64,000 nt of DNA, from the NCBI GenBank assembly GCA_027021445.1, contig JALUUH010000177.1, forward strand, positions 9,667 to 73,666. Reading direction: 5' to 3'. The position numbers and the translations under genes were made by a program. Shown piece after piece: positions 3,639 through 61,040 of the stretch. The notes under the pieces were generated by a model. That model made no database searches, was not told where the DNA came from, and was given only the letters and a program-made list of their open reading frames with translations. This stretch comes from Gammaproteobacteria bacterium (GTDB lineage: Bacteria; Pseudomonadota; Gammaproteobacteria; S012-40). Each line of letters begins with the position of its first letter. Position 1 is the first letter of the stretch.

Positions 3639-3657
3639 GGCAGAGAAAAGCCGCCTC
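3639..3657 (-). terminator. Riboswitch expression-platform terminator hairpin
   Basis: Minus strand GGCGG-CTTTTCT-CTGCC followed by TTTTTT, overlapping the 3' P1 strand of the TPP aptamer. Confidence 0.55.
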
Positions 3658-3755
3658 CCTACGCCGGTTCTAACCAGATCAGGTTTTAAGGGTATATCTC
3701 AGCCTATCTAAAAAAACTCACCTTTATGAAAGCTTTTATAGGCACCCCTGGTAGC
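3652..3755 (-). promoter_or_regulatory. TPP riboswitch
   Basis: Minus strand reads CAGGGGTGCC...GGCTGAGATATACCCTTAAAACCTGATCTGGTTAGAACCGGCGTAGGGA, the TPP aptamer consensus (GGGG, CTGAGA, ACCTGATC, GCGTAGGGA), directly upstream of thiC. Confidence 0.95.
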
Positions 3756-3968
3756 ACCTAAACCATAACACACAAAGACCAAACCTGGATACGCTGAAAT
3801 TTTATACCAATGACGACGCAATCACTCAACTACGCAGCATGAATCAAAGTTAAGCACATTATAAACTACGAACCCGCATAGGATATTTGTTGCCTATTTG
3901 CTACAAAGTGCTTAATCTAAAGCGCTCTTAATGTATGTGAACAATCTTTATCAATAGGCGCTCAAACA

Positions 3969-5181: not shown

Positions 5182-6549
5182 GTGAATCAATCTAAAATTG
5201 TGACGAGAATTGCTCCACGCGCTAAACATAAACATCTTCTGTTCTCATTTATTTTCGTCATCTTAAATACTACTAGCAGCTTTATCCATGCAAACGATTT
5301 ACTTTATACTTTTCAGCAAGCACTACAACACGATCCCACGTTTAAAGCTGCTGAAGCAATAAAGAACTCTGCGAGTGAGTTTAAGACCCAGAGTTTTGCT
5401 CATTTTTTGCCGTCTATTGCTGCCAATGCAAATGCTAGCCAAACCAATCAGCAACTCGACAAATCTGCTTTTGTCAGCAACGATCAACTCGGAAACAACT
5501 CATTCAAGAGTTCAGAATTTTCACTAAAATTGCGCCAACCTCTTCTAAACTGGCAGGCAATTCAATCATATAAAACGGCTAATTTAAAACAAACAAAAGC
5601 CGAAGTAGATTATCGCATCGCTCAGCAAGACTTACTCTACCGTGTCGCCAAAACTTATTTTCTCGTATTATTGAAAAAAGAAGCACTATTTTTTGCACGC
5701 GCAGAAAAAAAAGCGATAAATACGCAATTAAATCTCACTAAAAAACGCTATGAACTCGGCATTGTTGCAATAACTGAAGTACATGAAGCATCAGCACGAC
5801 TTGATCTCGCTTCCGCCAACGAAATTATACTCGAAACTGCATTGCAAATAGCCGAATCAAACTTGCAAAACATTACATATTCAAAAATAGTACGCTTTAA
5901 ATTCTTAAAGGAGAATCTACCACTTATAGCTCCGTCTCCCGCAAATATAGATAGCTGGGTTAATACGGCAAAAGTTCAAAACTTAAATATCGCGGTAGCC
6001 CAGCTAGAGGCGGACATTGCCAAACTACAAATTGACCTCATTCGTGCTAAACGCTTACCCACTATCGACCTAACAACCACCCTCGCCTATAACACGCGAG
6101 GCGGCCCATATCGAGAAGAACGGCAAGATAATCAGATAGCTTTTGATATGAACCTGCCTTTGTTTGGCGGTAATCGCATCAGCTCGGAAATAAGACAAGC
6201 TATTTTTTTATATGAAGCCGCTAATCAACATACTGAGGCAATTGAACGCATCGCCCTCGGGGAAACTCGCTCAGCCTATTTAAAAGTCATCGCTGCAATG
6301 AGCTTCATTAAAGCCATTAGCCAAGCGAACATATCGACGGAAAAAGCACTTAATGCCATAAAAGCGGGGTTTGAAATCGGCGCAAAATCAACTAAAGATG
6401 TTCTTGATGCACAAAATTTACTCTACCACAATAAACGAGATCATGCTCAAGCTCGTCATGACTATGTTTTAAACACCCTAAAACTTAAGATGTCTGTAGG
6501 ATTGCTGAGTATAAACGACTTAGAACAAGTCAACTCTTGGCTGGAATAA
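5182..6549 (+). CDS. tolC: TolC-family outer membrane efflux protein
   Basis: Signal peptide, A...LP.I motifs, repeated helical OEP halves, C-terminal LKLKMSVGLLSINDL. pcm-rhodanese-tolC synteny. Confidence 0.85.
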   Translation: MNQSKIVTRIAPRAKHKHLLFSFIFVILNTTSSFIHANDLLYTFQQALQHDPTFKAAEAIKNSASEFKTQSFAHFLPSIAANANASQTNQQLDKSAFVSNDQLGNNSFKSSEFSLKLRQPLLNWQAIQSYKTANLKQTKAEVDYRIAQQDLLYRVAKTYFLVLLKKEALFFARAEKKAINTQLNLTKKRYELGIVAITEVHEASARLDLASANEIILETALQIAESNLQNITYSKIVRFKFLKENLPLIAPSPANIDSWVNTAKVQNLNIAVAQLEADIAKLQIDLIRAKRLPTIDLTTTLAYNTRGGPYREERQDNQIAFDMNLPLFGGNRISSEIRQAIFLYEAANQHTEAIERIALGETRSAYLKVIAAMSFIKAISQANISTEKALNAIKAGFEIGAKSTKDVLDAQNLLYHNKRDHAQARHDYVLNTLKLKMSVGLLSINDLEQVNSWLE

Positions 6550-6596
6550 GGCGCACAATTTTTGCGAGGGAATAATATTTTTATTAGCAAGAGATC

Positions 6597-7157
6597 TTAG
6601 GGTGTGTCGTCAAAAGCTTCACAGAGAAAATGCAGAAGAAAGATATGACTTTCTTGAATACGCGATGTTCTTTGACCATCAACGATAATTGCCATATCCA
6701 CGAGCGGCGCTATACGCCCACCATTCCTACCGAGCAGACCTATCGATTTGATATTCATTTGCTGAGCCTTCTCAGCAACACAATAAAGATTAGCAGACTC
6801 ACCCGAGGTACTGATGACAATAAGAACATCACCCTCTTGTCCTAAGGATTCCAATTGCCTGGAAAATATGTGTTCAAAGCCATAGTCATTGCCAATGGCC
6901 GTCAGTGCGGAGCAATCTGTGGTCAAGGCAATGGCAGCATAACCTTTGCGATCTTTTTCAAAACGCCCCGTCAACTCAGAGGCGAAGTGCTGAGCATCTG
7001 ACGCAGAACCACCATTCCCACAAACATAAACGGTACGCTTACTTGCAAAACATGTCGCTAAAACCTCAACGACCGCTTGCAAGCGATCTTCTAAGGATGC
7101 TAGCCGGTCAATAACGGTTTGGTGCTCAATAATGGCATCAGCCAGCTTTATAGACAT
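6597..7157 (-). CDS. gmhA: D-sedoheptulose-7-phosphate isomerase
   Basis: CGNGGSASDAQHFASELTGRF, GNDYGFEHIFSRQ, ISTSGES, RIQESH. Confidence 0.93.
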   Translation of the reverse strand: MSIKLADAIIEHQTVIDRLASLEDRLQAVVEVLATCFASKRTVYVCGNGGSASDAQHFASELTGRFEKDRKGYAAIALTTDCSALTAIGNDYGFEHIFSRQLESLGQEGDVLIVISTSGESANLYCVAEKAQQMNIKSIGLLGRNGGRIAPLVDMAIIVDGQRTSRIQESHIFLLHFLCEAFDDTP

Positions 7158-7236
7158 TCTTACTCCCACACAAATAAGCTACAATATTCCCAAAACCGAC
7201 ATTATCACACTTAAACCTAACGCTTTCTCTAAATTA

Positions 7237-8151
7237 ATGAATTCATCCAATCATTTAAAATACTTACATCCTAAATTTTGGCCTATCTGGATAGCCATTG
7301 TATTCATACGGCTCAGCGTTATGTTGCCACAACATATTCGCATGAAGCTCGGGGCTGGTATTGGTAAATTGCTCTACATCTTTAGTAAAAAAAGAAGAAA
7401 AATTGCAAACATCAACTTAGCACTATGCTTTCCTAAAAACGATGCCAATTGGCGAAAACATATCATCAAACAACATTTTAGGACACTTGGACAAGCCATC
7501 TATGAAACCGCAATGACATGGTGGTTGCCCGATTCAAAACTCGCGCCTTTGATTAAAGTTGAGGGCCTTACCCATATTAAAAACGCGCTCGCGAAAAACC
7601 AAGGCATTATTTTATTAAGCGCTCATTTTAATTGCTTAGAACTCGGTGTCAGAGCCTTGCACATTAAAATTAACCAACAAATCGCCCCTGTATACCAAAA
7701 GAACAAAAATACTTTATTAGATTCTATTATTAACAAAGGTCGCTTAAATAATGCCACCAGCATCATTGAGCGCAACGATGTACGCAAGATAATCCGCACC
7801 TTGAAGCAAAAAAAATTAATCTGGTATGCCCCAGATCAAGCTTACAGTGAAAACAATAGCGAGATTGTTTCTTTTTTTGGCATTCCTGCAATGAGTAATA
7901 CCGCAACCCCACGTTTGGCAGCCATGGGAAATGCGATCGTCGTGCCTATGTTTATCAGGCAAAACGAGGATCAATCAGGCTATATTATTACCATAACACC
8001 TGAATTAGAACATTATCCCAGCGATGACCCCATCAAAGATACGGCGCGATTTCATAATCTCTTAGAAAATGAGATCAAAAAATCACCTCATCAATATTTA
8101 TGGGTACATAAAAGATTTAAAAGAAGGACGGGCTTACAGGATATCTATTAA
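7237..8151 (+). CDS. lpxL: Lipid A lauroyl/palmitoleoyl acyltransferase (LpxL/HtrB family)
   Basis: HPKFW N-terminus, SAHF, WYAPDQ, FFG, PHQYLWVHKRFK. Start moved to ATG 7237 to avoid overlap with gmhA. Confidence 0.88.
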   Translation: MNSSNHLKYLHPKFWPIWIAIVFIRLSVMLPQHIRMKLGAGIGKLLYIFSKKRRKIANINLALCFPKNDANWRKHIIKQHFRTLGQAIYETAMTWWLPDSKLAPLIKVEGLTHIKNALAKNQGIILLSAHFNCLELGVRALHIKINQQIAPVYQKNKNTLLDSIINKGRLNNATSIIERNDVRKIIRTLKQKKLIWYAPDQAYSENNSEIVSFFGIPAMSNTATPRLAAMGNAIVVPMFIRQNEDQSGYIITITPELEHYPSDDPIKDTARFHNLLENEIKKSPHQYLWVHKRFKRRTGLQDIY

Positions 8152-8175
8152 GATATACCCTCTTTACACAAAAAA

Positions 8176-8796
8176 TTAGCTTTCTTTTTTAATTAAAAAA
8201 TTAATAACCTTAATGGTATTTGCATTTCCACCCGTCATTCTATTCGATACTAAATATTTCCCATTGACAATAACGGCGGGAACTCCTTTTATTCCATAAC
8301 GACTCACCAGTGTTTTGGCTCTTCTAATTCGGGTTTCCACCGCAAATGAACGAAAAGTTTTAGTAAACTCAATTTTATCAACGCCATGCTCAGCAAAAAA
8401 ATCGCGCAAGGATTCTTCTGAATTCAACTTTCGCTTTTGCAAATGCAGCGCATCAAATAATGCCTGATGAACAGTATCAAATACTCCCAGTAATTGTGCT
8501 GTATAAAATGCGCGCCCATGAACCTCCCAGTCACTCCTGAGTACGCCGGGCAATCTGACAAATTCTGCATTTTCAGGTTTTCTTTTTAACCAACGCTCTA
8601 GATAAGGCTCAAAACGAAAACAGTGAGGACAGCCATACCAAAACACTTCAAGCACTTCTACTTTGCCTTTTGTGCTTGTCGGCTGAGGCGCTGACAGCCG
8701 CTCATAATGTACACCTTCTTCATATTCCTCGGCAAACGCAGGCATGGTAAAGGCCACAAAAATTGCCAATAAGGCCGCTAAACGAAATACGAACAT
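8176..8796 (-). CDS. dsbA: Thiol:disulfide interchange protein DsbA
   Basis: Signal peptide, EVFWYGCPHC active site, GVPAVIVNGKY cis-Pro loop. Confidence 0.93.
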   Translation of the reverse strand: MFVFRLAALLAIFVAFTMPAFAEEYEEGVHYERLSAPQPTSTKGKVEVLEVFWYGCPHCFRFEPYLERWLKRKPENAEFVRLPGVLRSDWEVHGRAFYTAQLLGVFDTVHQALFDALHLQKRKLNSEESLRDFFAEHGVDKIEFTKTFRSFAVETRIRRAKTLVSRYGIKGVPAVIVNGKYLVSNRMTGGNANTIKVINFLIKKES

Positions 8797-14074: not shown

Positions 14075-14102
14075 AAAAAGACCTCATAAGGAGGCCTTTT
14101 TT
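14075..14102 (-). terminator. Putative intrinsic terminator of the barrel/lipoprotein pair
   Basis: AAAAAGACCTC-ATAAG-GAGGCCTTTTTT hairpin with flanking A/T tracts, just downstream of ORF 14133. Confidence 0.6.
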
Positions 14103-14132: not shown

Positions 14133-15593
14133 TTAATTCCACTCCACTAATTCTCCACCGATGTCTACTAAATAACCCGTGCCATCATCATTTGTCTTCA
14201 ACACATACGACTCTGTTACTCCGGGTATTGGCTCAACCGTCATTACTATTGTGCCATCATCTATTTGCTCATAAGTCCCATTAAGCGGATCACCTGCTGT
14301 GAAACTCGCACTTGCCTCTCCACCTAAGTCTAGGTTTCCGGTCAATGCCATTGTTCCATCCTCGTTAAATGTCAAACCAACACTCGACCCAGCACCATCT
14401 GCAATATTAATCGGTGAACTTGTATCGATTGACGCCCGCGCACTAAAATCCGCACTGCTTGCATCGACATAGGTACCGTTTAAGAACTTATTGACTAAAC
14501 TGGTTAAACTGAATTTGTCATTCTCTAGGTTCTTCAAATATATACCAGCATCAAGATCCGTAGTTGCCGCTGCAACAGCTCGATTAATCGCATCATTTGC
14601 AACCGTGGCAATATTATTCGAACGCATTAGGTTAACAACTACTTCTATTGCCCGTGCTCGACTATAGGCATCCGCTTGAGAGCTAAGATCCGATTTAAAC
14701 AGGGTGGAAACTAATGCGGATAATACGCCTAGCTTAGCGGAAGTCGCGGTATTTGATGTTGCACCAGTCGTCGTTGTACCTTCAGCTGTCGCTGATGCGT
14801 TCATATTCCTAATAGCGGACTCAATAACAGTATTTACACTACTGACTAAAACATCTGCTACTTTGCGGGTCCCTAAATTTTCTTGAATGGCCGCATATGC
14901 CAAATGTGTTGGATCAAGCGGTAAGTTGTCACCGAATAATGTGTTATTTAACGTAACACCCATAAGATCCGCAGACTTGTGTAATAAAAGCGCCATTTTG
15001 AACAAGGCTGTGCGCTTTGCAAAAGTCTGGCTGCTCGAAAAATCCAAATAATCTGAATTCATATCTGCTACAGTAAGATCATTTGCTTCAGTTGCTACAA
15101 ACGTATTTATTTCTGCATCAGTCATTGTCGACATTAAGCTAGTAATCGGTGAGACCACGAGCACCGATGATGAAACATTCTTAATCGCGACTTTACGACT
15201 TAAAACTCCTACAAACGATTCACTAATGGTTTTGCTATAACCCCCCGAAACACGAATCATCGCCTCGGCTTGCCCTGCCGATAACTTAAAGCAGTTTTCA
15301 GGCTCATCCGCGCCCTCCGCACAATGATCTACAGCTGCGCCGCCCTCTCCTCCCGTAGGACTACTCGACGTATACCCGTCTTTATCCGTTTGCGCAGCGC
15401 TACCAACTTCTCCGGTATCTTTAATCCCGTCTTGATCAAAATCCTGGAAAAGCTTCCCTCTGGTAATATATCCATCAATCGCTCGAATGCTCAGCTGTAT
15501 ATCCGCTGAACCATTATCCTGATCTGGCACCGCACAACCCACTAAGCCTATTATGATGAGGACAGCGGCAATAAAACTTATTTTTTCAAACAT
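14133..15593 (-). CDS. Hypothetical Ala/Thr/Ser-rich lipoprotein (486 aa)
   Basis: Lipobox LVGC; AIDGYITRGKLFQDFDQDGIKDTGE (DxDxDG Ca-loop-like) N-terminal motif; long helical middle; beta-rich C-terminus. Confidence 0.7.
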   Translation of the reverse strand: MFEKISFIAAVLIIIGLVGCAVPDQDNGSADIQLSIRAIDGYITRGKLFQDFDQDGIKDTGEVGSAAQTDKDGYTSSSPTGGEGGAAVDHCAEGADEPENCFKLSAGQAEAMIRVSGGYSKTISESFVGVLSRKVAIKNVSSSVLVVSPITSLMSTMTDAEINTFVATEANDLTVADMNSDYLDFSSSQTFAKRTALFKMALLLHKSADLMGVTLNNTLFGDNLPLDPTHLAYAAIQENLGTRKVADVLVSSVNTVIESAIRNMNASATAEGTTTTGATSNTATSAKLGVLSALVSTLFKSDLSSQADAYSRARAIEVVVNLMRSNNIATVANDAINRAVAAATTDLDAGIYLKNLENDKFSLTSLVNKFLNGTYVDASSADFSARASIDTSSPINIADGAGSSVGLTFNEDGTMALTGNLDLGGEASASFTAGDPLNGTYEQIDDGTIVMTVEPIPGVTESYVLKTNDDGTGYLVDIGGELVEWN

Positions 15594-15608
15594 TCGCTTA
15601 TCCCCTAA

Positions 15609-16946
15609 TTAAAACATAAAATTAATGCCGGCATTTAATGCAATACCGCGCGCAGCAAATGGCACATCCTCTAAACCTTGTATTTGACTGGTATCAAAAG
15701 GCTTTAATCCATAGGCAATATCAATGTGAGCAATAAGCCATGAAATACCAAAAGTGAGGTAATTCATTTGCGTGCCTACTAAGTTTTGACGATATCCCAC
15801 ACGTACACCAGGTGCCCAAAACCATTTACTCCAGAGTTTGGGTATAAATGAAGAACTCACCGTAAACCACTGATATTCATTGGCCACCATGTCTCTGATA
15901 GGGTTCACCTCTAACGAGGTGGAAACAGCCCACATTCGGCTTAATGAATAGAGTGAAGCCTCTAAATTTAACTGGGGAAACATCGTATAGGTTTCTTTCA
16001 GGTCAATTTCATCCGAAAAAGCGAGTGCTGCAAAACACGCATCATCGGTGCAATTATTTCCAATTGTTGGGTAGTCAAACGAAGGCGCATTAATATTCTT
16101 GAGTGTGCCTCCTACCTGGTAATGCGGAGTAACAAATAAAGCACCAATATCTAGGCCTATACCTGCCTTGCCACCACCACTGATCGCATCAGACATATTA
16201 TCCTCTAACAAAGTCGTTGCATCGCTAAACTCCTGAAAACTTATCAAGTTCTTGGTTAATAAAACTTGATAATAGGCAAGGCGAAAACCGCCGTAGATAA
16301 TTCCTTCCGGTAACTCATAAACCTCTTTACTATAGGATACTGAACCTTGCACCAAGCCTCCCACTTTCAAATAAGCAGCTGAATTAGTCTGAATCTGATC
16401 ACCTTCGGCGGCTAAGAAATCAAGCGCTAATGGCGCATCTAAAAACCCTATTTTGGCTTGCACATCAATTCCAAGATCAAAAACCAAAGAACCAAGATCC
16501 GGCCCCGTAGTTACAAATGGGCCGAGAGGTTGAACACCTATAGCAGCGTCCATATAAAATGAATCACCTAATTCTGCGAGCAAATTATCGGCATCGTTTT
16601 TTAAGGCCTCAACAACTGATAAGTCTGGAGTAGCAGAACCACTTAAAAATGAACTTTGCACCGCATCTAAGCGTTGCTGAATCCCATCAATGTTATTGTA
16701 AATCTGTTCCATCGGACCAAATTCCAAGGCCACTCCCACAGAATTAACAATACTCATGCCGAATCCGCGTTTTTCTGAGAACAACAGTGTAACGCCCGTT
16801 GCCGGGTTGCCCGAGTAAGCTGATAGATTATAGGGACTACTCACATTTCCGTGGGTTAGGTTCGCGCCCGATGGCAAAGCTGACGTTTGCGAGAATACGC
16901 CTGTTGAAGCCCCACACATTACCAGCGCAGTCAATATTCGCTTCAT
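15609..16946 (-). CDS. Outer-membrane beta-barrel, TraF-like (TraF_2)/FadL superfamily
   Basis: Signal peptide, N-terminal ...SGNPA hatch motif, alternating beta-strands (GIGLDIGALF, YQVGGTLKNIN, VRVGYRQN), C-terminal aromatic ...GINFMF. Confidence 0.65.
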   Translation of the reverse strand: MKRILTALVMCGASTGVFSQTSALPSGANLTHGNVSSPYNLSAYSGNPATGVTLLFSEKRGFGMSIVNSVGVALEFGPMEQIYNNIDGIQQRLDAVQSSFLSGSATPDLSVVEALKNDADNLLAELGDSFYMDAAIGVQPLGPFVTTGPDLGSLVFDLGIDVQAKIGFLDAPLALDFLAAEGDQIQTNSAAYLKVGGLVQGSVSYSKEVYELPEGIIYGGFRLAYYQVLLTKNLISFQEFSDATTLLEDNMSDAISGGGKAGIGLDIGALFVTPHYQVGGTLKNINAPSFDYPTIGNNCTDDACFAALAFSDEIDLKETYTMFPQLNLEASLYSLSRMWAVSTSLEVNPIRDMVANEYQWFTVSSSFIPKLWSKWFWAPGVRVGYRQNLVGTQMNYLTFGISWLIAHIDIAYGLKPFDTSQIQGLEDVPFAARGIALNAGINFMF

Positions 16947-17168
16947 AGCTGACCCTCTAATTGATGCTTCATGATCATTTCTCTTAAATTTAACATTCTT
17001 AAACGGTTCCCATCTTTATCGCTTTATGCTATTTGTATCTGCTTTCGACCATGCTTCGATTAGACTTGATAGCTCATTACATGTTTTTACAAAGATATTT
17101 CTTAGCTAGAACTGAATGGAAGACATAAACACATTACAATCAATGCACTGCAAAAAGAGAACCAATAA

Positions 17169-17483
17169 ATGCATAAAACACCTTGTCCCCACTGTGAAAA
17201 AGATGCGATAAGCATTTCAGACCGTTTAAAAGCCTTGCACTGGCACACCATTCACTGCGCAGATTGCGGCAAACGATCTTGCATGAATCCTATTATGTTA
17301 TCCATATTTTGGTTTGTTCTGGTTTGGGATTTTTTCTTTTTTGGGTTTATGGCTTGGTTTGAAAGTAGCTATATCTATCTGGCAATAATGCTGATTGGCT
17401 GGCTTATCATTGATGTATTCGGCTATTACATTCCACTTTCTCGAATGCGGTCGTTACCGATACCTGACGGCAAAAGCGGCTAA
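17169..17483 (+). CDS. Small membrane protein with N-terminal Zn-ribbon-like motif
   Basis: CPHC...HCADC followed by two hydrophobic helices. Confidence 0.6.
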   Translation: MHKTPCPHCEKDAISISDRLKALHWHTIHCADCGKRSCMNPIMLSIFWFVLVWDFFFFGFMAWFESSYIYLAIMLIGWLIIDVFGYYIPLSRMRSLPIPDGKSG

Positions 17484-36998: not shown

Positions 36999-38711
36999 TT
37001 AACTGGGTTTTGCATTAGTCGCTTTTTCCACCTGCTTAGTAATATACCACTGCTGAGCAATTGACAATAAATTGTTAACAACCCAATATAAAACAAGACC
37101 TGATGGAAACAGCATAAAAAATAATGTGAAGATAATCGGCATGAAATTCATGATTTTTTGATGCATTGGATCTAATGATGGATTATGACTCAGCTTTTGC
37201 TGAACATACATCGATATACCCATTAACAGAGGCAATATATAAAATGGATCTTTTGCCGATAAATCATCAATCCACAAAATAAATGGCGCTTGGCGAATTT
37301 CGACACTCTCTAGGAGCATCCAATAAAGTGAAATAAATACCGGAATTTGTACTAACATTGGCCAACAACCCGATAATGGATTAACCTTTTCCTTCTTATA
37401 CAATTCCATCGTAGCCGCACTCATTTTTTGGCGATCTTCACCATAACGATCACGAATCGCTTGAAATTTTGGTGCTAACTTGCGCATATTCGCCATCGAA
37501 CGGTAACTGGCTGCGGACAACTTATAGAACACAATTTTAATTAATAGTGTCAGAATGACAATTGCAAATCCCCAGTTTCCGAGTTTCGAATGCAACCATT
37601 CAAGCACCCAAAAAAGAGGTTGTGCAATAATGGTTAAAAATCCGTAATCAACAGTTAACTTTAAATTTTCTGATATTTTTTCCAATCTATCTTGAATTTT
37701 TGGTCCGACGTATAAGTCCGTAGAAAACGTATATGAACTTCCCGCTGGAACGGTAAATTCAGCACTCGTTAAACCAAGAATATAACGCGTATTATTAATA
37801 CTTCTTGTGTAGAAATGATTAACTTCGCCTGGTTTAGGAACCCAAGCACTGACAAAATAATGCTGTAGCATTGCCACCCATCCACCACTAAAATAGCTTT
37901 GGGTCGGCTTCCAGGTTTCCATTTCCTTTAAATCTATTTTTTCGTAAGGCTCTTCCGGCGTAGAAACCGCGCCACCTGTAAACGTATAAAGTAGTCTCGA
38001 TTTGCCAGGCTCATCATATTCATTTCTTTGAAATTGGCGATAAAGACGCCCATCCCAATCATTGGCCGTATTATTTTCAATAACGTGATCAATGTGAATG
38101 AGATAACTATCCCGTTTAAAGGTATAAATTTTTGTTACTTTCAGTCCGTCTTCACCGACCCAGTTTAAAAAAACTTTCGACTCAGCTTGGCCTTCTTTTA
38201 GAATAACCTCGGTTTGCTCAGATGAAAAAATAGCATGATGATCTGGTGATGGCGTTTTTGATAATAAACCTGTTTGCGCAATAAATAACTGCGGCAAGGC
38301 ATCGTCCATAAGGGGATAAGGGTTCTCAGGCTCGTGTACATCAATTGGATAATTTTTTAAGAAAGCTCGTCGCAAATCACCACCCACGACATCAATATCT
38401 ATATCAAAAACATCAGTTTCAACATGAATCCGTTTATTTGAGGTAAGCGCAGATTGCACATTTGCAGCAGGTTTATCAGCCACGCTTTCCGCAACAGCTG
38501 TTGGTGTATCAGGTGTATCACTTGGTATACTTTCAGCGGTATTTTCAGTGGGTGTAATAGCCACAGAAGATGATTCTGGTGTAATAGCAACATCAGAAAC
38601 AGGATTGTTAGCAGTGATAATAACGGGTTGGTTTTTTGCGTTCCAGGCATCCCACATAAGCAATACAACAAAACTCAGTGCGATAAACAGAAGCAGTCTT
38701 TGATTATCCAT
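36999..38711 (-). CDS. yidC: Membrane protein insertase YidC
   Basis: VDYG, GNWG, NPLSGCWP, QAPF, DPFYILP, GLVLYW. Confidence 0.98.
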   Translation of the reverse strand: MDNQRLLLFIALSFVVLLMWDAWNAKNQPVIITANNPVSDVAITPESSSVAITPTENTAESIPSDTPDTPTAVAESVADKPAANVQSALTSNKRIHVETDVFDIDIDVVGGDLRRAFLKNYPIDVHEPENPYPLMDDALPQLFIAQTGLLSKTPSPDHHAIFSSEQTEVILKEGQAESKVFLNWVGEDGLKVTKIYTFKRDSYLIHIDHVIENNTANDWDGRLYRQFQRNEYDEPGKSRLLYTFTGGAVSTPEEPYEKIDLKEMETWKPTQSYFSGGWVAMLQHYFVSAWVPKPGEVNHFYTRSINNTRYILGLTSAEFTVPAGSSYTFSTDLYVGPKIQDRLEKISENLKLTVDYGFLTIIAQPLFWVLEWLHSKLGNWGFAIVILTLLIKIVFYKLSAASYRSMANMRKLAPKFQAIRDRYGEDRQKMSAATMELYKKEKVNPLSGCWPMLVQIPVFISLYWMLLESVEIRQAPFILWIDDLSAKDPFYILPLLMGISMYVQQKLSHNPSLDPMHQKIMNFMPIIFTLFFMLFPSGLVLYWVVNNLLSIAQQWYITKQVEKATNAKPS

Positions 38712-38712
38712 T

Positions 38713-38940
38713 TTATTTCTTATTTAGTTCTTCTGGCACGGGGTCTATTCCCCCTTCATGCCAAGGATGACAACGAGTAATTCGTTTAAAAGCTAACCAG
38801 CCACCGTGGATAGCACCGAAGCGTGATATAGACTCTTCGGCATAAGAAGAACAACTAGGGTAATAACGGCAATTTGAACCCAAAAAAGGGCTGATAAAGT
38901 ACCTATATATCTTAATAAAACTAGTTAGAATCTTTCTCAT
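38713..38940 (-). CDS. yidD: Membrane protein insertion efficiency factor
   Basis: [25 protein letters not shown]. Confidence 0.95.
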
Positions 38941-39292
38941 TGACCGATAAACTACGCCAAATACTGTTTAGAATCAGCTTTAACTGCTGATTAGATGTAA
39001 GCTCTAGACCAGGACGAGCGAGAAGGATAATATCGACTCCCTTATCGCCAAAGCAATGTAAGCGAAAACTTTCTCTACAAATACGCTTTAAACGGCTACG
39101 TTCTACAGATTTTCGAACTGCTTTTTTAGAGAAGGCCATCCCTAGTCTAGGGTTATTTTTTTCATTAACTCTAGAATATGCTACAAGTACTTTTTTATTA
39201 TTTTTACGTGGCTTAGCAAACACCCACTTAAAATCTGCCGGTGTCAAAAGACGATATCTTCGAGGAAAATGTTGACGACACTGACACATCAA
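38921..39292 (-). CDS. rnpA: RNase P protein component
   Basis: [20 protein letters not shown]-like [13 protein letters not shown]. Confidence 0.92.
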
Positions 39293-39367
39293 CTAACAAG
39301 CAACTTATGCATTACGCGCAGGTTAAACCAGTCCATGATTAATCTAAAACTATTTAACCTAATAAAT

Positions 39368-39502
39368 TTAGGCGGTTAAACGAACTCGTCCTTTACGACG
39401 ACGCGCATTCACGATTTGGCGACCTGCTTTAGTAGCCATACGTGCGCGAAAACCATGTGTGCGAGCTCTTTTTATACTACTTGGTTGAAAAGTTCTTTTC
39501 AT
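39368..39502 (-). CDS. rpmH: 50S ribosomal protein L34 (missing from ORF track)
   Basis: Manual translation: [44 protein letters not shown]. Confidence 0.98.
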
Positions 39503-39682
39503 AATTCCATACCTATAAAGGCTCGAAGCCCCGGATAAAAGGCGGTCAAGATACGCATCACGTTAACACTTGTCAATAGAAATAAATCTTTAAAACTCGA
39601 TAAAAACTCTGGAAGGAGTTATCAGAGATAGTTAGACTGACGAGTCCTCTAACTTTAATGCCTTTCAACGTGGTAAAAAACA

Positions 39683-41074
39683 TTGTCGCAAACTCTCTGG
39701 AGCAAGTGTTTAACTCAGCTAGAACATGAGCTAAGTGCACAGCAATATAATACATGGATTAAACCCCTAAATGCAGAAGTCACAGAAAATGGGTTGATCA
39801 TCATTGCCCCTAATCGCTTCGTGCTTGACTGGGTTAATAGAAAGTTTCTTCTTAGAATAAAGGAGATTAGCTCAACCGTTCATGGTAACAATTCTTCAAT
39901 CACCTTAAAAATCAAAAAAACGCCGCCTTTAGGCATTGAACCCAAATTAAAACCTAAAATTCAAGTCGATGTTCAGGCACAGCAGCCTTCAATACCTGCA
40001 AAACTAATTCGGCCAAAAACGCAACGTACCGAATTAACTCCTAATGTTATCCGTCAAAGCTCATTAAATCCTTTATACAATTTTGAGAATTATGTCGAAG
40101 GAAAATCAAATCAGCTCGCACGCGCCGCTTCATTTTTAGTCGCTGAAAACCCCGGAGGTGGTTATAATCCATTGTTTTTATACGGTGGAGTAGGTCTTGG
40201 TAAAACACACTTAATGCATGCAATCGGTAATTATTTTATTAATACTAATCCCAAAGCAAAAGTCGCCTATTTGCATTCCGAAAAATTTGTTCAAGACATG
40301 GTTAAAGCATTACAACACAATTCGATAAGTCGTTTTAAAAACTATTATCGATCTCTTAACGTGTTGCTTATTGATGATATTCAGTTTTTTGCAGGGAAAG
40401 AGCGTTCTCAAGAGGAATTTTTTCATACATTTAATCAATTACTTGAAGGTCAAAACCAAGTTGTGCTTACGTGTGATCGCTATCCAAAAGAAGTCGATGG
40501 TTTAGAAGAGAGACTTAAATCAAGATTTGGTTGGGGGCTCACTGTTTCTGTAGAACCGCCTGACTTAGAAACTCGAATTGCAATATTAATGAGCAAAGCA
40601 AAGCAAATGGATGTTGATTTAAGCGATGATGTGGCTTTTTTTCTCGCGAAAAACATTCGCTCAAATATTCGTGATTTAGAAGGCGCATTACGACGTGTCA
40701 GTGCAAATTCTAAATTTACCGGAAACGCGATAACCTTGGATTTTACCCGTGAGGCATTACGTGACTTACTCGCTGTACAACAAAAACTTGTCACTCTTGA
40801 GAATATTCAAAAAACAGTAACTGAATATTATAAAATACGATTTTCAGAGTTATTGTCGAAAAAGAGAACACGCTCAATTGCCAGACCAAGGCAAATAGCA
40901 ATGACATTGGCTAAAGAATTAACAAACCATAGTTTACCTGAAATTGGGAATGCATTCGGTGGTAGAGATCATACAACCGTCTTACATGCATGTAAAAAAG
41001 TGAATGAATTAAAAAAATCTGACCTAAAAGTTGAGGAAGATTACAGCAACCTGTTGAGAAGACTGACAACATAG
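39683..41074 (+). CDS. dnaA: Chromosomal replication initiator DnaA
   Basis: [40 protein letters not shown]. Confidence 0.99.
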
Positions 41075-41084
41075 TGGTAAAACC

Positions 41085-41285
41085 TGTGAATAAGATGAGT
41101 CGGCATAAATAAGCCAATATCATGCACAAGTTATCCACAGACCACATACAGCTAAACCAGGGTTTCATATTCAATTAAATAGTTATTAACTTATTGAAAT
41201 ACAAAAATAAATAAAAGTTAATAACAAAATTAAGCTGGGTATTTAATAGCAATAAGTTTTTTAAAAAATATAGGGTAATTATAAT
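41085..41285. other. Putative oriC (DnaA boxes plus AT-rich unwinding region)
   Basis: TGTGAATAA 41085-41093, TCATGCACA 41120-41128 and TTATCCACA 41131-41139, followed by a very AT-rich tract with inverted repeats. Apparent GC-skew switch around here. Confidence 0.7.
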
Positions 41286-58290: not shown

Positions 58291-59721
58291 ATGTCAGAAA
58301 CAGAAATGATTTGGGTTATTGATGATGATAGATCAATTCGCTGGGTACTTGAGCGTGCGCTAAAAAAAGCATCAATGGAAGTTAAAAGCTTTGAAAGTGC
58401 AAAGGGAGTCATCGAAAAACTACACTTCAGTCAACCGGATGCGATCATTAGTGACGTGCGTATGCCGGGAGTGGATGGTTTAGCCTTATTATCTGAGATT
58501 AAAGATAATTACCCATTGCTACCCGTGATCATCATGACTGCTCATTCTGATCTAGACAGCGCAGTATCCGCTTATGAAGGTGGTGCGTTTGAATATTTGC
58601 CCAAGCCCTTTGATGTTGATGATGCGATAGAATTAGTACGCAGAGCGGTAGATCATTCGCGAGTTAAAATATCAACCATTACTCAAGATAGTAGTAAGGT
58701 TTCTCAAACTGAACTTATTGGTGAAGCACCTGCTATGCAGGAAGTTTTTCGTGCGATTGGGAGGCTATCCCGTTCTAATATCACGGTCATGATTAATGGT
58801 GAGTCTGGTACGGGAAAAGAATTGGTCGCGACTGCATTACACCGTCATAGTCCTCGATCCGTAAACCCATTTATTGCGATAAATACTGCGGCAATTCCGA
58901 AAGATCTTTTAGAGTCTGAGTTATTTGGGCATGAGAAAGGTGCATTTACTGGTGCGCAAGCGATGCGTCGTGGGCGGTTTGAACAGGCAAACGGTGGTAC
59001 ATTGTTTCTCGATGAAATTGGTGATATGCCTGCAGAATTACAAACGCGATTATTAAGGGTTTTGGCTTCAGGGGAGTTTTATCGGGTTGGTGGTCATGAT
59101 CCCATTAAGGTGGATGTTCGGATCATTGCAGCTACCCATCAAAATTTGGAAGAACTAGTAAAGCAAGGGCAATTCCGTGAAGATCTTTTTCACCGGCTGA
59201 ATGTCATACGAGTTCATTTGCCATCATTGCGTGAGCGACGTGAAGATGTGCCACTTTTGTTGACACATTTTCTTGCTAATGCAGCTACAGAACTAAATGT
59301 TGAGCTGAAACAATTACGTGCGGAGACAGCCCAATTTTTAATGCAGTTTGATTGGCCTGGAAATGTACGACAATTAGAAAACGTATGCCGTTGGTTAATG
59401 GTCATGGCTCCGGGGCCTGAAATTCATATTGATGACTTGCCAGCGGAACTAAAAACGGTATCCACAAATGCATGCAACACGGATGATTGGCAGCAAGCTT
59501 TGAAGTTATGGACAACCGCAGCCTTGAATTGTGGTGAAAAAAACCTAATGAGCCGTTCAACACCTTGTTATGAGGCGGTTATGATTTCTGCCGCTTTAGA
59601 ATTTACCGGCGGTCGTAGACAAGAAGCTGCAAAGTTATTAGGTCTAGGTCGAAATACGTTGACTCGAAAAATTAAAGAACTAAATTTAGACGGTATTGAT
59701 GTGTTGGATCAGGCATATTAA
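58291..59721 (+). CDS. glnG: Nitrogen regulation response regulator NtrC
   Basis: REC domain, GESGTGKE, ESELFGHEKGAFTGA, Fis-type HTH (LGLGRNTLTRK). Confidence 0.97.
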   Translation: MSETEMIWVIDDDRSIRWVLERALKKASMEVKSFESAKGVIEKLHFSQPDAIISDVRMPGVDGLALLSEIKDNYPLLPVIIMTAHSDLDSAVSAYEGGAFEYLPKPFDVDDAIELVRRAVDHSRVKISTITQDSSKVSQTELIGEAPAMQEVFRAIGRLSRSNITVMINGESGTGKELVATALHRHSPRSVNPFIAINTAAIPKDLLESELFGHEKGAFTGAQAMRRGRFEQANGGTLFLDEIGDMPAELQTRLLRVLASGEFYRVGGHDPIKVDVRIIAATHQNLEELVKQGQFREDLFHRLNVIRVHLPSLRERREDVPLLLTHFLANAATELNVELKQLRAETAQFLMQFDWPGNVRQLENVCRWLMVMAPGPEIHIDDLPAELKTVSTNACNTDDWQQALKLWTTAALNCGEKNLMSRSTPCYEAVMISAALEFTGGRRQEAAKLLGLGRNTLTRKIKELNLDGIDVLDQAY

Positions 59722-61040
59722 CCCAATTTTGCATTTTCTTTAACTTCGTTATTGTCTAGTTGCGCTAACATCAATTGAGCTACTTGATTTTGAGTGGCTT
59801 GAAGTTCAGTTGTCAAATTGTTTACCTTATCTATTTCGCCATTGTCGATAAGAATTTCCATTTCTGCAGCGATGATATTCAAGGTCTTTGCACCAAATTG
59901 CGCGCTGGTTCCCTTTATTGAATGAATCGTTTTTTTTAATGTTTCTAAGTCATCTTGTTGAGCTGCTTCCATCGCACGATTTACATTTTCGACGGCGTTG
60001 TTGATGTGTTTATCCAAAAGAGTAGAAAATCTACAATTTCTGAAAAATCTAAAATGTCATTGATTATCGTTAGTAAAGCGTCCGCTGATTTCATGGTAGC
60101 TTCTGCGTAGCTGCGTTGTTTGCTCGATAAAACGGTGTCTAGTAATAATCCCGACATTCCGATAATACCATTCATTGGTGTGCGTATTTCGTGGCTCATA
60201 TTGGCTAAAAACTCTGACTTCAGGCGTGTGGCTGATTCAGCATTTTCCTTGGCTTCACGTAACTCAAGTTCGCCTTGTTTGCGTATAGTTATGTCAGCAC
60301 GGATAGCGATGTAACTCTTAGGTTTTCCATTGCTTTCCATAATGCGATGATTGTTGCCGAGTAATTCTTCACGGCTGTATCCACTGATTTCAGTAAATTT
60401 GTTATTTACAAAAGTTATTGTGCCGTGAACATCGAGCTATTAATAATAGAATTATGCATATGTTCATTAATCCGATCGAGGCGTAATTGAAGCGCAAAAA
60501 TACCAATTTTATTGCCATGTTCATCTAGCATGGGTGTGATAAGAAAACCTGCTACTTGATTGCTGGAGGGTGCATAATGTTCTAGATCAGAAAAAAGAGT
60601 GCGCCCTGTATCTAAGCTGAATTGACTTTTTTTTGCGAATTGAGAGTTGGCATAAATGCCGTTGAAAAGATTAGTGCCCAGATCAGGTTGACGGGCTGTA
60701 GAGAATAATATGTTGCCATCGACATCAACCAGAAACAAGTCGTGGATGTAATCATATCGGCGGGTAAGCGTCAAAGATCATGTTGTCGTTCGTTTAAGCG
60801 AGGCCCAGGTAAAACTATGGATGAATTCCTCTAGACTTTTTCCGCTACGTTTAAAGCTTTCTTTGAGTGTCATCAGAAACTCAGCATTTCTAAGGTTTTC
60901 AGATTGAATACTGAGATCCATAAATCGATATTCAAACCAATAGCTTATCCGGTTGTTCCCTAGCTTGTGTCAATACTAAAATAATCGAAATAATCGTTTG
61001 TTTGGTAGCGGCAAAATATCAGAAAAATGAAGCATAATTT
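59718..61040 (-). pseudogene. Decayed hybrid sensor histidine kinase (Cache-PAS-HisKA...Hpt fragments)
   Basis: Collinear fragments in different frames: Cache (YDYIHDLFLVDVDGNILFS), PAS start ([14 protein letters not shown]...NHRI) joined directly to PAS end ([15 protein letters not shown]), HisKA ([15 protein letters not shown]...DILDFS), then Hpt (HSIKGTSAQFGA). HATPase and REC domains are absent. Confidence 0.85.

Follow-up and report, generated by a model that had tools for sequence, protein, structure and literature searches.

Proteins of the Pfam family TraF_2 share their family name with a plasmid transfer protein, and the locus described here raises the question of what such a protein does when its gene is followed directly by a lipoprotein gene. 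The locus lies in a 64,000-nucleotide (nt) stretch from a Gammaproteobacteria bacterium (contig JALUUH010000177.1, positions 9,667 to 73,666 of the forward strand), which we refer to as the window. A sequence-only reading of the window had proposed that the pair, a TraF/FadL-like barrel and a lipoprotein, is a candidate undescribed surface-lipoprotein export or display system rather than a plasmid transfer gene. Our analysis indicates that the two genes are a self-contained two-gene module whose partnership is confined to one clade of TraF_2 barrels, and we tentatively favor a role for their products as a surface barrel-lipoprotein complex for the capture and uptake of hydrophobic ligands.

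Both genes are on the reverse strand. The barrel gene (15609-16946; 445 amino acids, aa) encodes a predicted outer-membrane protein with a FadL-superfamily fold, and the lipoprotein gene (14133-15593; 486 aa) belongs to an unannotated family. They are separated by a 15-bp spacer (15594-15608, same strand) that carries a Shine-Dalgarno sequence for the lipoprotein gene, GGGGA at 15601-15605, 7 nt ahead of its ATG. The unit is closed by an intrinsic terminator hairpin at 14075-14101 on the same strand (-13.1 kcal/mol, z = -3.8), followed by a U-run; only 1 of 200 shuffled sequences folded equally well, and a simple consensus terminator scan did not list this hairpin. At the other end, a 222-bp divergent intergenic region (16947-17168) is the presumed location of the promoter and contains a Shine-Dalgarno sequence, GAGGG at 16953-16957, ahead of the barrel ATG. 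No convincing sigma-70 consensus was found in these 222 bp, where promoter-like sites were no commoner than in shuffles. The 15-bp gap, the Shine-Dalgarno sequence and the single terminator predict that both genes are carried on one transcript. The sequence-only reading had described the genes as co-oriented, 15 bp apart and bounded by a terminator, and these features hold.

We then asked how widely the arrangement recurs. A word-indexed homolog search returned only three close relatives per protein and a contig pattern scan returned one locus; homologs were therefore surveyed by whole-genome hidden Markov model searches and an exhaustive search of representatives, with genes in related loci taken from simple longest-open reading frame (ORF) calls. 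Within the window's taxonomic family the TraF_2 profile, PF13729, was found in all 16 genomes, versus only 5 of 45 genomes of other families in the class. Each of the 16 family genomes carries one ortholog of the window barrel with a lipoprotein homolog after it, a single genome having two pairs of this kind, and the pair is a core, syntenic and vertically inherited locus throughout the family. A class-wide sample of 400 genomes contained full-length lipoprotein homologs in four further families, where the lipoprotein gene again adjoins a barrel ortholog in unrelated contexts, with the gene order inverted once. No full-length lipoprotein homolog was detected outside the class in a phylum-wide sample. 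Starting from the lipoprotein instead, we examined ten distant representatives drawn from metagenomes and metagenome-assembled genomes; for all ten, the gene immediately upstream on the same strand matches PF13729, and the ten contexts differ. Altogether the adjacency recurs at more than 30 independent loci, and it is therefore not a chance arrangement.

Among 23 pairs, the intergenic gap ranges from -14 to 45 bp in 21 and is 71 and 142 bp in the remaining two; on average, the barrels are 33% identical and the lipoproteins 25%. Distance matrices for the two proteins across these pairs were correlated (Mantel r = 0.84; 0 of 2,000 permutations as high), which shows that barrel and lipoprotein are inherited together rather than that they are in contact. 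A maximum-likelihood tree of 52 TraF_2 barrels resolved three clades: paired, small, and stand-alone or "orphan". The paired clade had support values of 100/100, and 26 of its 28 members have a lipoprotein partner, while none of the 24 barrels in the small and orphan clades does. Co-occurrence with the lipoprotein is thus strictly clade-specific within TraF_2. The neighborhood survey that the sequence-only reading had suggested therefore gave a clear answer from both sides: barrels of this clade neighbor the lipoprotein as a rule rather than rarely.

The barrel itself matched PF13729 with 122 bits (cut-off 25; E = 3.5e-35), covering model positions 4-262 of 264. TraF_2 was the only family returned by hmmscan at E <= 1, with no match to PF03349 (FadL/Toluene_X), DUF560 or TPR; NCBIfam gave no match, and a sequence-profile search of the PDB returned nothing. 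Thus, of the two families that the sequence-only reading had put forward for a HMMER check, PF13729 was matched and PF03349 was not. From the translation, residues 1-19 (16890-16946, reverse strand, as for all barrel and lipoprotein segments below) form a signal peptide with predicted cleavage between VFS and QT (MKRILTALVMCGASTGVFS followed by QT). Residues 20-60 (16767-16889) form an N-terminal hatch or plug containing an NPA motif at 16800-16808. This motif corresponds to residues 47-49 (28-30 of the mature protein), with N47 and P48 invariant in 16 orthologs, and it lines up with the same motif in canonical FadL homologs from related genomes and in all other TraF_2 clades. The protein ends in GINFMF, with a terminal Phe.

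An AlphaFold2 (AF2) model of the barrel, built from an alignment of the 16 orthologs, had a predicted local distance difference test score (pLDDT) of 73, with low values in the N-terminal helix, and 14 strands were counted in DSSP. The model has short inferred periplasmic turns and long outer loops, with a helix within loop L3. In Foldseek searches of the PDB, the top 18 matches were FadL (E. coli and mutants), TodX, TbuX and a Pseudomonas FadL homolog, and PorV ranked next; the top matches had E-values of 1e-6 to 1e-4 and a probability of 1.0, with template modeling (TM) scores of only ~0.4. When the barrel was compared with canonical FadL homologs using hhalign, the probability was 8%, yet the alignment was end-to-end and in register at NPA; the template set included one wrong-strand ORF row. 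Because this sequence link is weak, fold evidence was used instead. On the basis of the modeled fold, the barrel belongs to the FadL superfamily and, within it, to TraF_2 rather than to the canonical FadL proteins; a separate gene for one of these (PF03349) is present elsewhere in the same genome. The signal peptide, NPA hatch, C-terminal Phe and FadL/PorV likeness that had been read from the sequence are all borne out.

The partner is a lipoprotein with a DGYI motif (residues 40-43), as had also been noted from the sequence. In the translation, residues 1-29 (15507-15593) comprise the signal peptide, a lipobox, LVGC, with Cys at position 20 and Ala at +2, and a tether with the motif C-x4-QDxG. 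In 17 homologs, C20, Q25, D26 and G28 are invariant. Across 137 representatives of the lipoprotein family, a lipobox-like Cys is present in all except a few N-terminally truncated ones, and 98 carry [QE]D.[GS] no more than 14 residues beyond this Cys, 65 of them at an offset of exactly 4. The AF2 model of the lipoprotein scored a pLDDT of 80 and a predicted TM score of 0.84; the tether is probably flexible in this model, since residues 21-29 have a pLDDT below 50.

Beyond the tether, the model divides into three domains. An N-terminal beta-sandwich (residues 30-147; 15153-15506) carries calcium-type motifs, DGY...D.N.NG..D..E...TD.DGY, and a Cys91-Cys101 pair; residues D51, E62, T69, D70, G73, C91 and C101 are invariant in the 17 homologs. 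A motif of ~35 residues from this domain is repeated 13-21 times in giant proteins, where Pfam assigns the repeats to SdrD_B or CarboxypepD_reg, and calcium-type beta-sandwiches of these families are typical of extracellular stalks. The central domain (residues 149-381; 14451-15149) is all-helical by DSSP of the AF2 model and had no meaningful PDB match by sequence profile or fold. At the C-terminus, a nine-strand beta meander (residues 395-486; 14136-14411) is a possible small ligand-binding barrel in the model. Foldseek found a weak likeness of this domain to barrels of the CRABP/FABP/NanoLuc type (E = 0.2-1, probability 0.2-0.5, target-normalized TM ~0.3), which we take as a hint only. The whole lipoprotein had no Foldseek match in the PDB at E <= 1e-3, and the corresponding sequence-profile search returned helical designed proteins alone. 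Neither Pfam nor NCBIfam matched the window lipoprotein, and Pfam scans of 16 close relatives and then of 72 diverse family members revealed no shared domain. At E <= 1e-30 the family comprises 217 clusters (50% identity), nearly all 500-600 aa and full length. It is therefore a sizeable, undescribed family. The N-terminal module (lipobox, tether and calcium-type beta-sandwich) also recurs in other lipoproteins of 600-770 aa, including one tandem pair, whose genes have no adjoining barrel gene (L097:4501-6300 and 6452-8245; L096:3958-6255; L098:1-1958).

Comparison of paired barrels with other members of TraF_2, among them the plasmid TraF from which the name derives, showed what is specific to the paired clade. 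All share an NPA-bearing N-terminus and a barrel core, but the paired barrels, which are chromosomal and form the sole clade with a lipoprotein partner, differ in two regions in addition to forming a branch of their own. Their hatch motif is P.G..LT.G, compared to D.R..GMGG in unpaired barrels. The second difference is an insertion in loop L4: the stretch corresponding to residues 289-318 of the window barrel is 30-41 residues long in paired barrels and 7-13 in unpaired ones, and it contains a Cys299/Cys304 pair that is near-invariant among orthologs of the window barrel. In the AF2 model, L4 spans residues 284-324 (41 residues; 15975-16097), and L1 spans residues 77-130 (54 residues; 16557-16718) between strands 1 and 2 and forms a helical hairpin with helices at 80-101 and 109-129. 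In FadL-type barrels both termini are periplasmic and the periplasmic turns are short. Because this standard topology would place the L4 insertion extracellularly, we infer that L1 and L4 lie outside the cell.

Several features point to the same side of the membrane for the lipoprotein. The clade-specific changes on the outer face of the barrel, the extracellular-type stalk and the conserved tether suggest an interface on the surface side. In two lineages, moreover, a type II secretion operon encloses the pair, with the order gspD-barrel-lipoprotein-OMP-gspE-gspF (L105:950-8411 and L126:1-7815), where OMP is a predicted outer-membrane beta-barrel protein of 313-362 aa with a signal peptide, a C-terminal YWNF and no Pfam match. 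The pairs of these two operons share 54% identity between barrels and 34% between lipoproteins. Since type II secretion systems place some lipoproteins on the cell surface, this setting may be taken as weak support for a surface location by analogy. The lipoprotein is predicted to be exposed at the surface.

What was seen directly is how the genes are arranged, which motifs they encode, the fold class of the barrel, and the clade-specific co-occurrence and co-inheritance; the mechanism that we propose goes further. Cotranscription of the two genes would yield a dedicated outer-membrane module. Its barrel would form a 14-strand channel of the FadL superfamily with a plug, and its lipoprotein would receive a lipid at Cys20 and then be sorted to the outer membrane. 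Barrel and lipoprotein probably form a complex, which would sit on the outer face of the cell. On the barrel, docking would involve the clade-specific outer loops, L1 with its helical hairpin and L4 with its disulfide-bearing insertion; on the lipoprotein, it would involve the C-x4-QDxG tether and the calcium-type beta-sandwich stalk. The helical and small beta-barrel domains of the lipoprotein could then capture a hydrophobic or amphipathic ligand and hand it to the barrel, from which it would reach the outer membrane or the periplasm by a lateral-diffusion route of the FadL type. An uptake function is possible, but we regard it as much more doubtful than complex formation.

The closest functional precedent is the VolA-FadL pair of Vibrio cholerae, vca0862-vca0863, in which VolA is an 81-kDa lysophospholipase (PMC3656444). 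There, the gene for a FadL homolog is followed after 16-23 bp by the cotranscribed VolA gene, and surface exposure of VolA has been demonstrated experimentally (PMC3656444). The window pair resembles this system in having a barrel gene followed within ~20 bp by a lipoprotein gene on what is here a predicted single transcript, and in a lipoprotein that lacks Asp at +2 and is hence expected to be sorted to the outer membrane. The proposed logic is also alike, with a surface lipoprotein that processes or captures lipid next to a channel that imports it; in our case a binding protein would take the place of the lipase. The two systems differ in that the lipoprotein described here has no hydrolase or any other Pfam domain (window protein and 72 family members scanned), its surface exposure is predicted from its sequence rather than established by experiment, and its barrel belongs to a separate TraF_2 clade, whereas the Vibrio barrel is a canonical FadL (Toluene_X).

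Several points weigh against the capture and uptake reading. Proteobacterial lipoproteins face the periplasm by default. The lipoprotein has no recognizable ligand-binding or catalytic domain, and the calycin likeness of its C-terminal domain is below significance. A core, syntenic, housekeeping locus close to the replication origin would suit a constitutive envelope role in this family equally well as, or better than, uptake. In addition, the genome has its own canonical PF03349 FadL, so a second fatty-acid channel is not obviously needed, and the loss of GMGG from the hatch of the paired clade means that the transport pathway may be altered.

The main alternative is a role in display or export, in which the barrel would bring its cognate lipoprotein to the surface or hold it there and transport nothing. 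The lipoprotein would then serve at the surface as an adhesin, a shield or a structural protein, and the barrel would act like PorV or BamG, or be functionally Slam-like. We consider this rather unlikely on balance, but it draws on much of the same evidence: the strict clade-specific pairing, the clade-specific extracellular loops, the adhesin-type calcium-binding beta-sandwich, the type II secretion operons of two lineages, and an invariant tether motif straight after the lipid anchor that is reminiscent of export signals. The status of the pair as core genes in the taxonomic family, in a housekeeping setting near oriC, also favors anchoring or delivery. Known barrels provide models for such a role to different extents. 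PorV (LptO) of type IX secretion is a FadL-fold barrel with an NPA motif whose outer loops bind secreted or surface proteins, and PorV entries (6h3i_F and 8gl6_F) are among the best fold matches of the barrel. This likeness is at fold level only, since NCBIfam gives no PorV match, the lipoprotein has no C-terminal cargo domain for type IX secretion, and the partner is a lipoprotein encoded next door instead of a shuttled cargo. Slam (DUF560) translocons are 14-stranded barrels whose genes likewise adjoin those of the surface lipoproteins that they serve (TbpB, fHbp and HpuA). However, the window barrel has neither DUF560 nor a periplasmic TPR domain, its region ahead of the barrel is a hatch of ~40 residues, a FadL-type plug, and the lipoprotein has neither the TbpB-like handle nor the barrel lobes of Slam cargo. 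The barrel is not related to Slam. As the FadL-type plug with its NPA motif is kept, passage of the ~50-kDa lipoprotein through the lumen is unlikely; in addition, the lipoprotein consists of a large helical and a small beta domain without adhesin-like repeats, and its exposure at the surface is itself predicted. Capture and uptake fits the data at least as well as export or display. A more specific proposal, that the FadL-fold barrel is a dedicated device for surface delivery and anchoring in Gammaproteobacteria that reads the invariant C-x4-QDxG tether, is unlikely in our view. Slam, threading with help from the machinery for beta-barrel assembly (BAM; RcsF), and type II secretion are known routes by which lipoproteins become surface exposed. 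If the surface-delivery proposal were true, the pair would represent a further route beside these, and Proteobacteria would have an equivalent of the complexes that barrels and surface lipoproteins form in Bacteroidota.

One such complex is part of the Bacteroidota BAM complex, where the 14-stranded FadL homolog BamG binds the surface lipoprotein BamH by its extracellular loops (PMC12578637). The lipid anchor of BamH adjoins the barrel, and a second pair, BamG2-BamH2, is encoded by Bt1785/Bt1786 (PMC12578637). The window pair is similar in combining a 14-stranded FadL-type barrel with a lipoprotein partner, which favors display. It comes from another phylum, however, and the Bacteroidota lipoprotein export signal is not applicable to Gammaproteobacteria. 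Another reading is a periplasm-facing arrangement, with the lipoprotein in the inner leaflet of the outer membrane on the periplasmic face of the barrel, where it might gate the plug or receive cargo; in a second version, the pair would assist outer-membrane biogenesis as BamG-BamH does. This reading is quite unlikely in either version, although it would agree with the default Lol sorting topology of proteobacterial lipoproteins and the Ala at +2, and would suit both a core housekeeping locus close to oriC and the nearby envelope genes (TolC-like OEP, lipid A acyltransferase and DsbA). The differences between paired and unpaired barrels sit in predicted extracellular loops while the periplasmic turns are short, and calcium domains of the SdrD_B type are typical of extracellular proteins. 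No BAM-complex chain was among the best 50 Foldseek matches of either protein, the barrel ranking FadL, TodX and PorV on top and the lipoprotein having no significant match.

A remnant or cargo gene of a conjugative element, with a true TraF, or two unrelated genes that happen to be adjacent, is very improbable. The name of the Pfam family is the only point in favor of the first version, and the second is at odds with a pairing that is kept down to ~25% protein identity and across unrelated contexts. To examine the setting of the pair, we scanned 37 window proteins against Pfam: the pair and 35 others, which comprised 32 of the 46 remaining distinct ORFs of at least 150 aa and three shorter neighbors. 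Several of the ORFs of this size outside the scan belong to the atp/par/mnm stretch or probably represent spurious overlapping frames; polA and glmS, also outside it, were recognized by eye from their translations, and ORFs below 150 aa were not systematically checked. The scanned proteins are products of housekeeping or envelope genes, with five lacking a Pfam match, the lipoprotein among them. Pfam identified, among others, thiC, a TolC-like OEP, a lipid A acyltransferase, DsbA, a YihA-type GTPase, DUF2782, cytochrome c, a Lon-N-domain protein, a UbiX-type flavoprotein and Mpl (mpl). Other genes of the window are glmU, atpD, parB, gidA, yidC, dnaA, dnaN, gyrB, glyQS, glnA and ntrBC-like genes. 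The sign of the GC skew switches at ~40 kb, beside dnaA, which identifies the window as the chromosomal oriC region.

None of the 37 scanned proteins has a tra/trb, relaxase or integrase domain, and tblastn searches of 72,556 plasmids gave no match for either the barrel or the lipoprotein. The vertical inheritance and synteny of the locus across the whole taxonomic family likewise argue against a mobile origin. Identity as a conjugative TraF was therefore rejected on the basis of the absence of transfer genes among the scanned proteins, the oriC setting and the lack of plasmid matches. The name TraF_2 is a Pfam family label only, and, to the extent of these scans and searches, the pair is unrelated to plasmid transfer. 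In this respect the sequence-only reading, which had noted the housekeeping surroundings and the absence of transfer and integrase genes and had concluded that the barrel is not a plasmid transfer gene, was correct. Chromosomal TraF_2 genes of the paired clade should accordingly not be called conjugal transfer proteins, and correcting this annotation trap is one use of the present analysis.

The claim that the system is undescribed was upheld in part. The families and their pairing are new, but VolA-FadL and BamG-BamH are earlier examples of a FadL-type barrel that has a surface lipoprotein as its partner. A literature search found no paper on PF13729 and nothing relevant on FadL-like gene pairs or TraF/FadL/IncI. 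Since a FadL-type barrel with a cognate surface lipoprotein is known in principle, the novelty is in the families and not in the kind of system: an uncharacterized TraF_2 clade is paired, in Gammaproteobacteria, with a lipoprotein family that lacks annotation, and the pair shows a conserved tether motif as well as a disulfide loop specific to the clade. Both the surface placement of proteobacterial lipoproteins and the capture of hydrophobic compounds ahead of FadL-type channels are only partly understood, and the pair offers a compact two-gene system in which to study them. Experiments could start from the tether motif, the disulfide loop of L4 and the hairpin of L1.

No third gene is common to all loci of the pair. 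Within the window's taxonomic family, and only there, it has as neighbors a zinc-ribbon membrane protein, DUF2782, cytochrome c and the Lon-N protein; these four were rejected as members of the module because their synteny is confined to that one family. The zinc-ribbon gene (17169-17483, forward strand) is divergent from the barrel gene and encodes a protein of 104 aa with an N-terminal CxxC...CxxC zinc ribbon, two transmembrane helices and no Pfam match; its position is kept in 14 loci of the same family and not in pair loci of other families.

Additional TraF_2-type barrels were observed beside some of the pairs. In 8 of the 16 family genomes, a smaller barrel gene lies directly after the lipoprotein gene in convergent orientation (L033:2915-4012, L041:5788-6987, L050:8726-9808, L051:8826-9782, L055:8798-9946, L060:6842-7963, L061:2635-3798 and L062:4341-5276). 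These barrels of 310-400 aa have a GMGG...NPA N-terminus, are absent from the window's genus and make up the small clade of the tree (support 97/94), which is sister to the stand-alone barrels. An exception to the pairing was found in genome G058 (L056:5851-8633), where the genes of a paired-clade barrel and a second TraF_2-type barrel converge without an intervening lipoprotein gene, in the same DUF2782-cytochrome c neighborhood. The second barrel has 392 aa and is basal to the stand-alone clade in the tree; the lipoprotein at this locus may have been lost.

Elsewhere in the window, the replication-origin region can be placed at ~38700-41100, with the lowest G+C content just downstream of dnaA (41-44 kb). 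Three consecutive short ORFs at 59718-60774 (reverse strand), with an HPt-like segment of 99 aa, a HisKA segment of 119 aa and a sensor segment of 119 aa, resemble fragments of one hybrid sensor kinase; the probable explanation is either a pseudogene with a frameshift or an error in assembling this genome from metagenomic data. Finally, a thiamine pyrophosphate (TPP) riboswitch was observed at 3639-3759 on the reverse strand, upstream of thiC.

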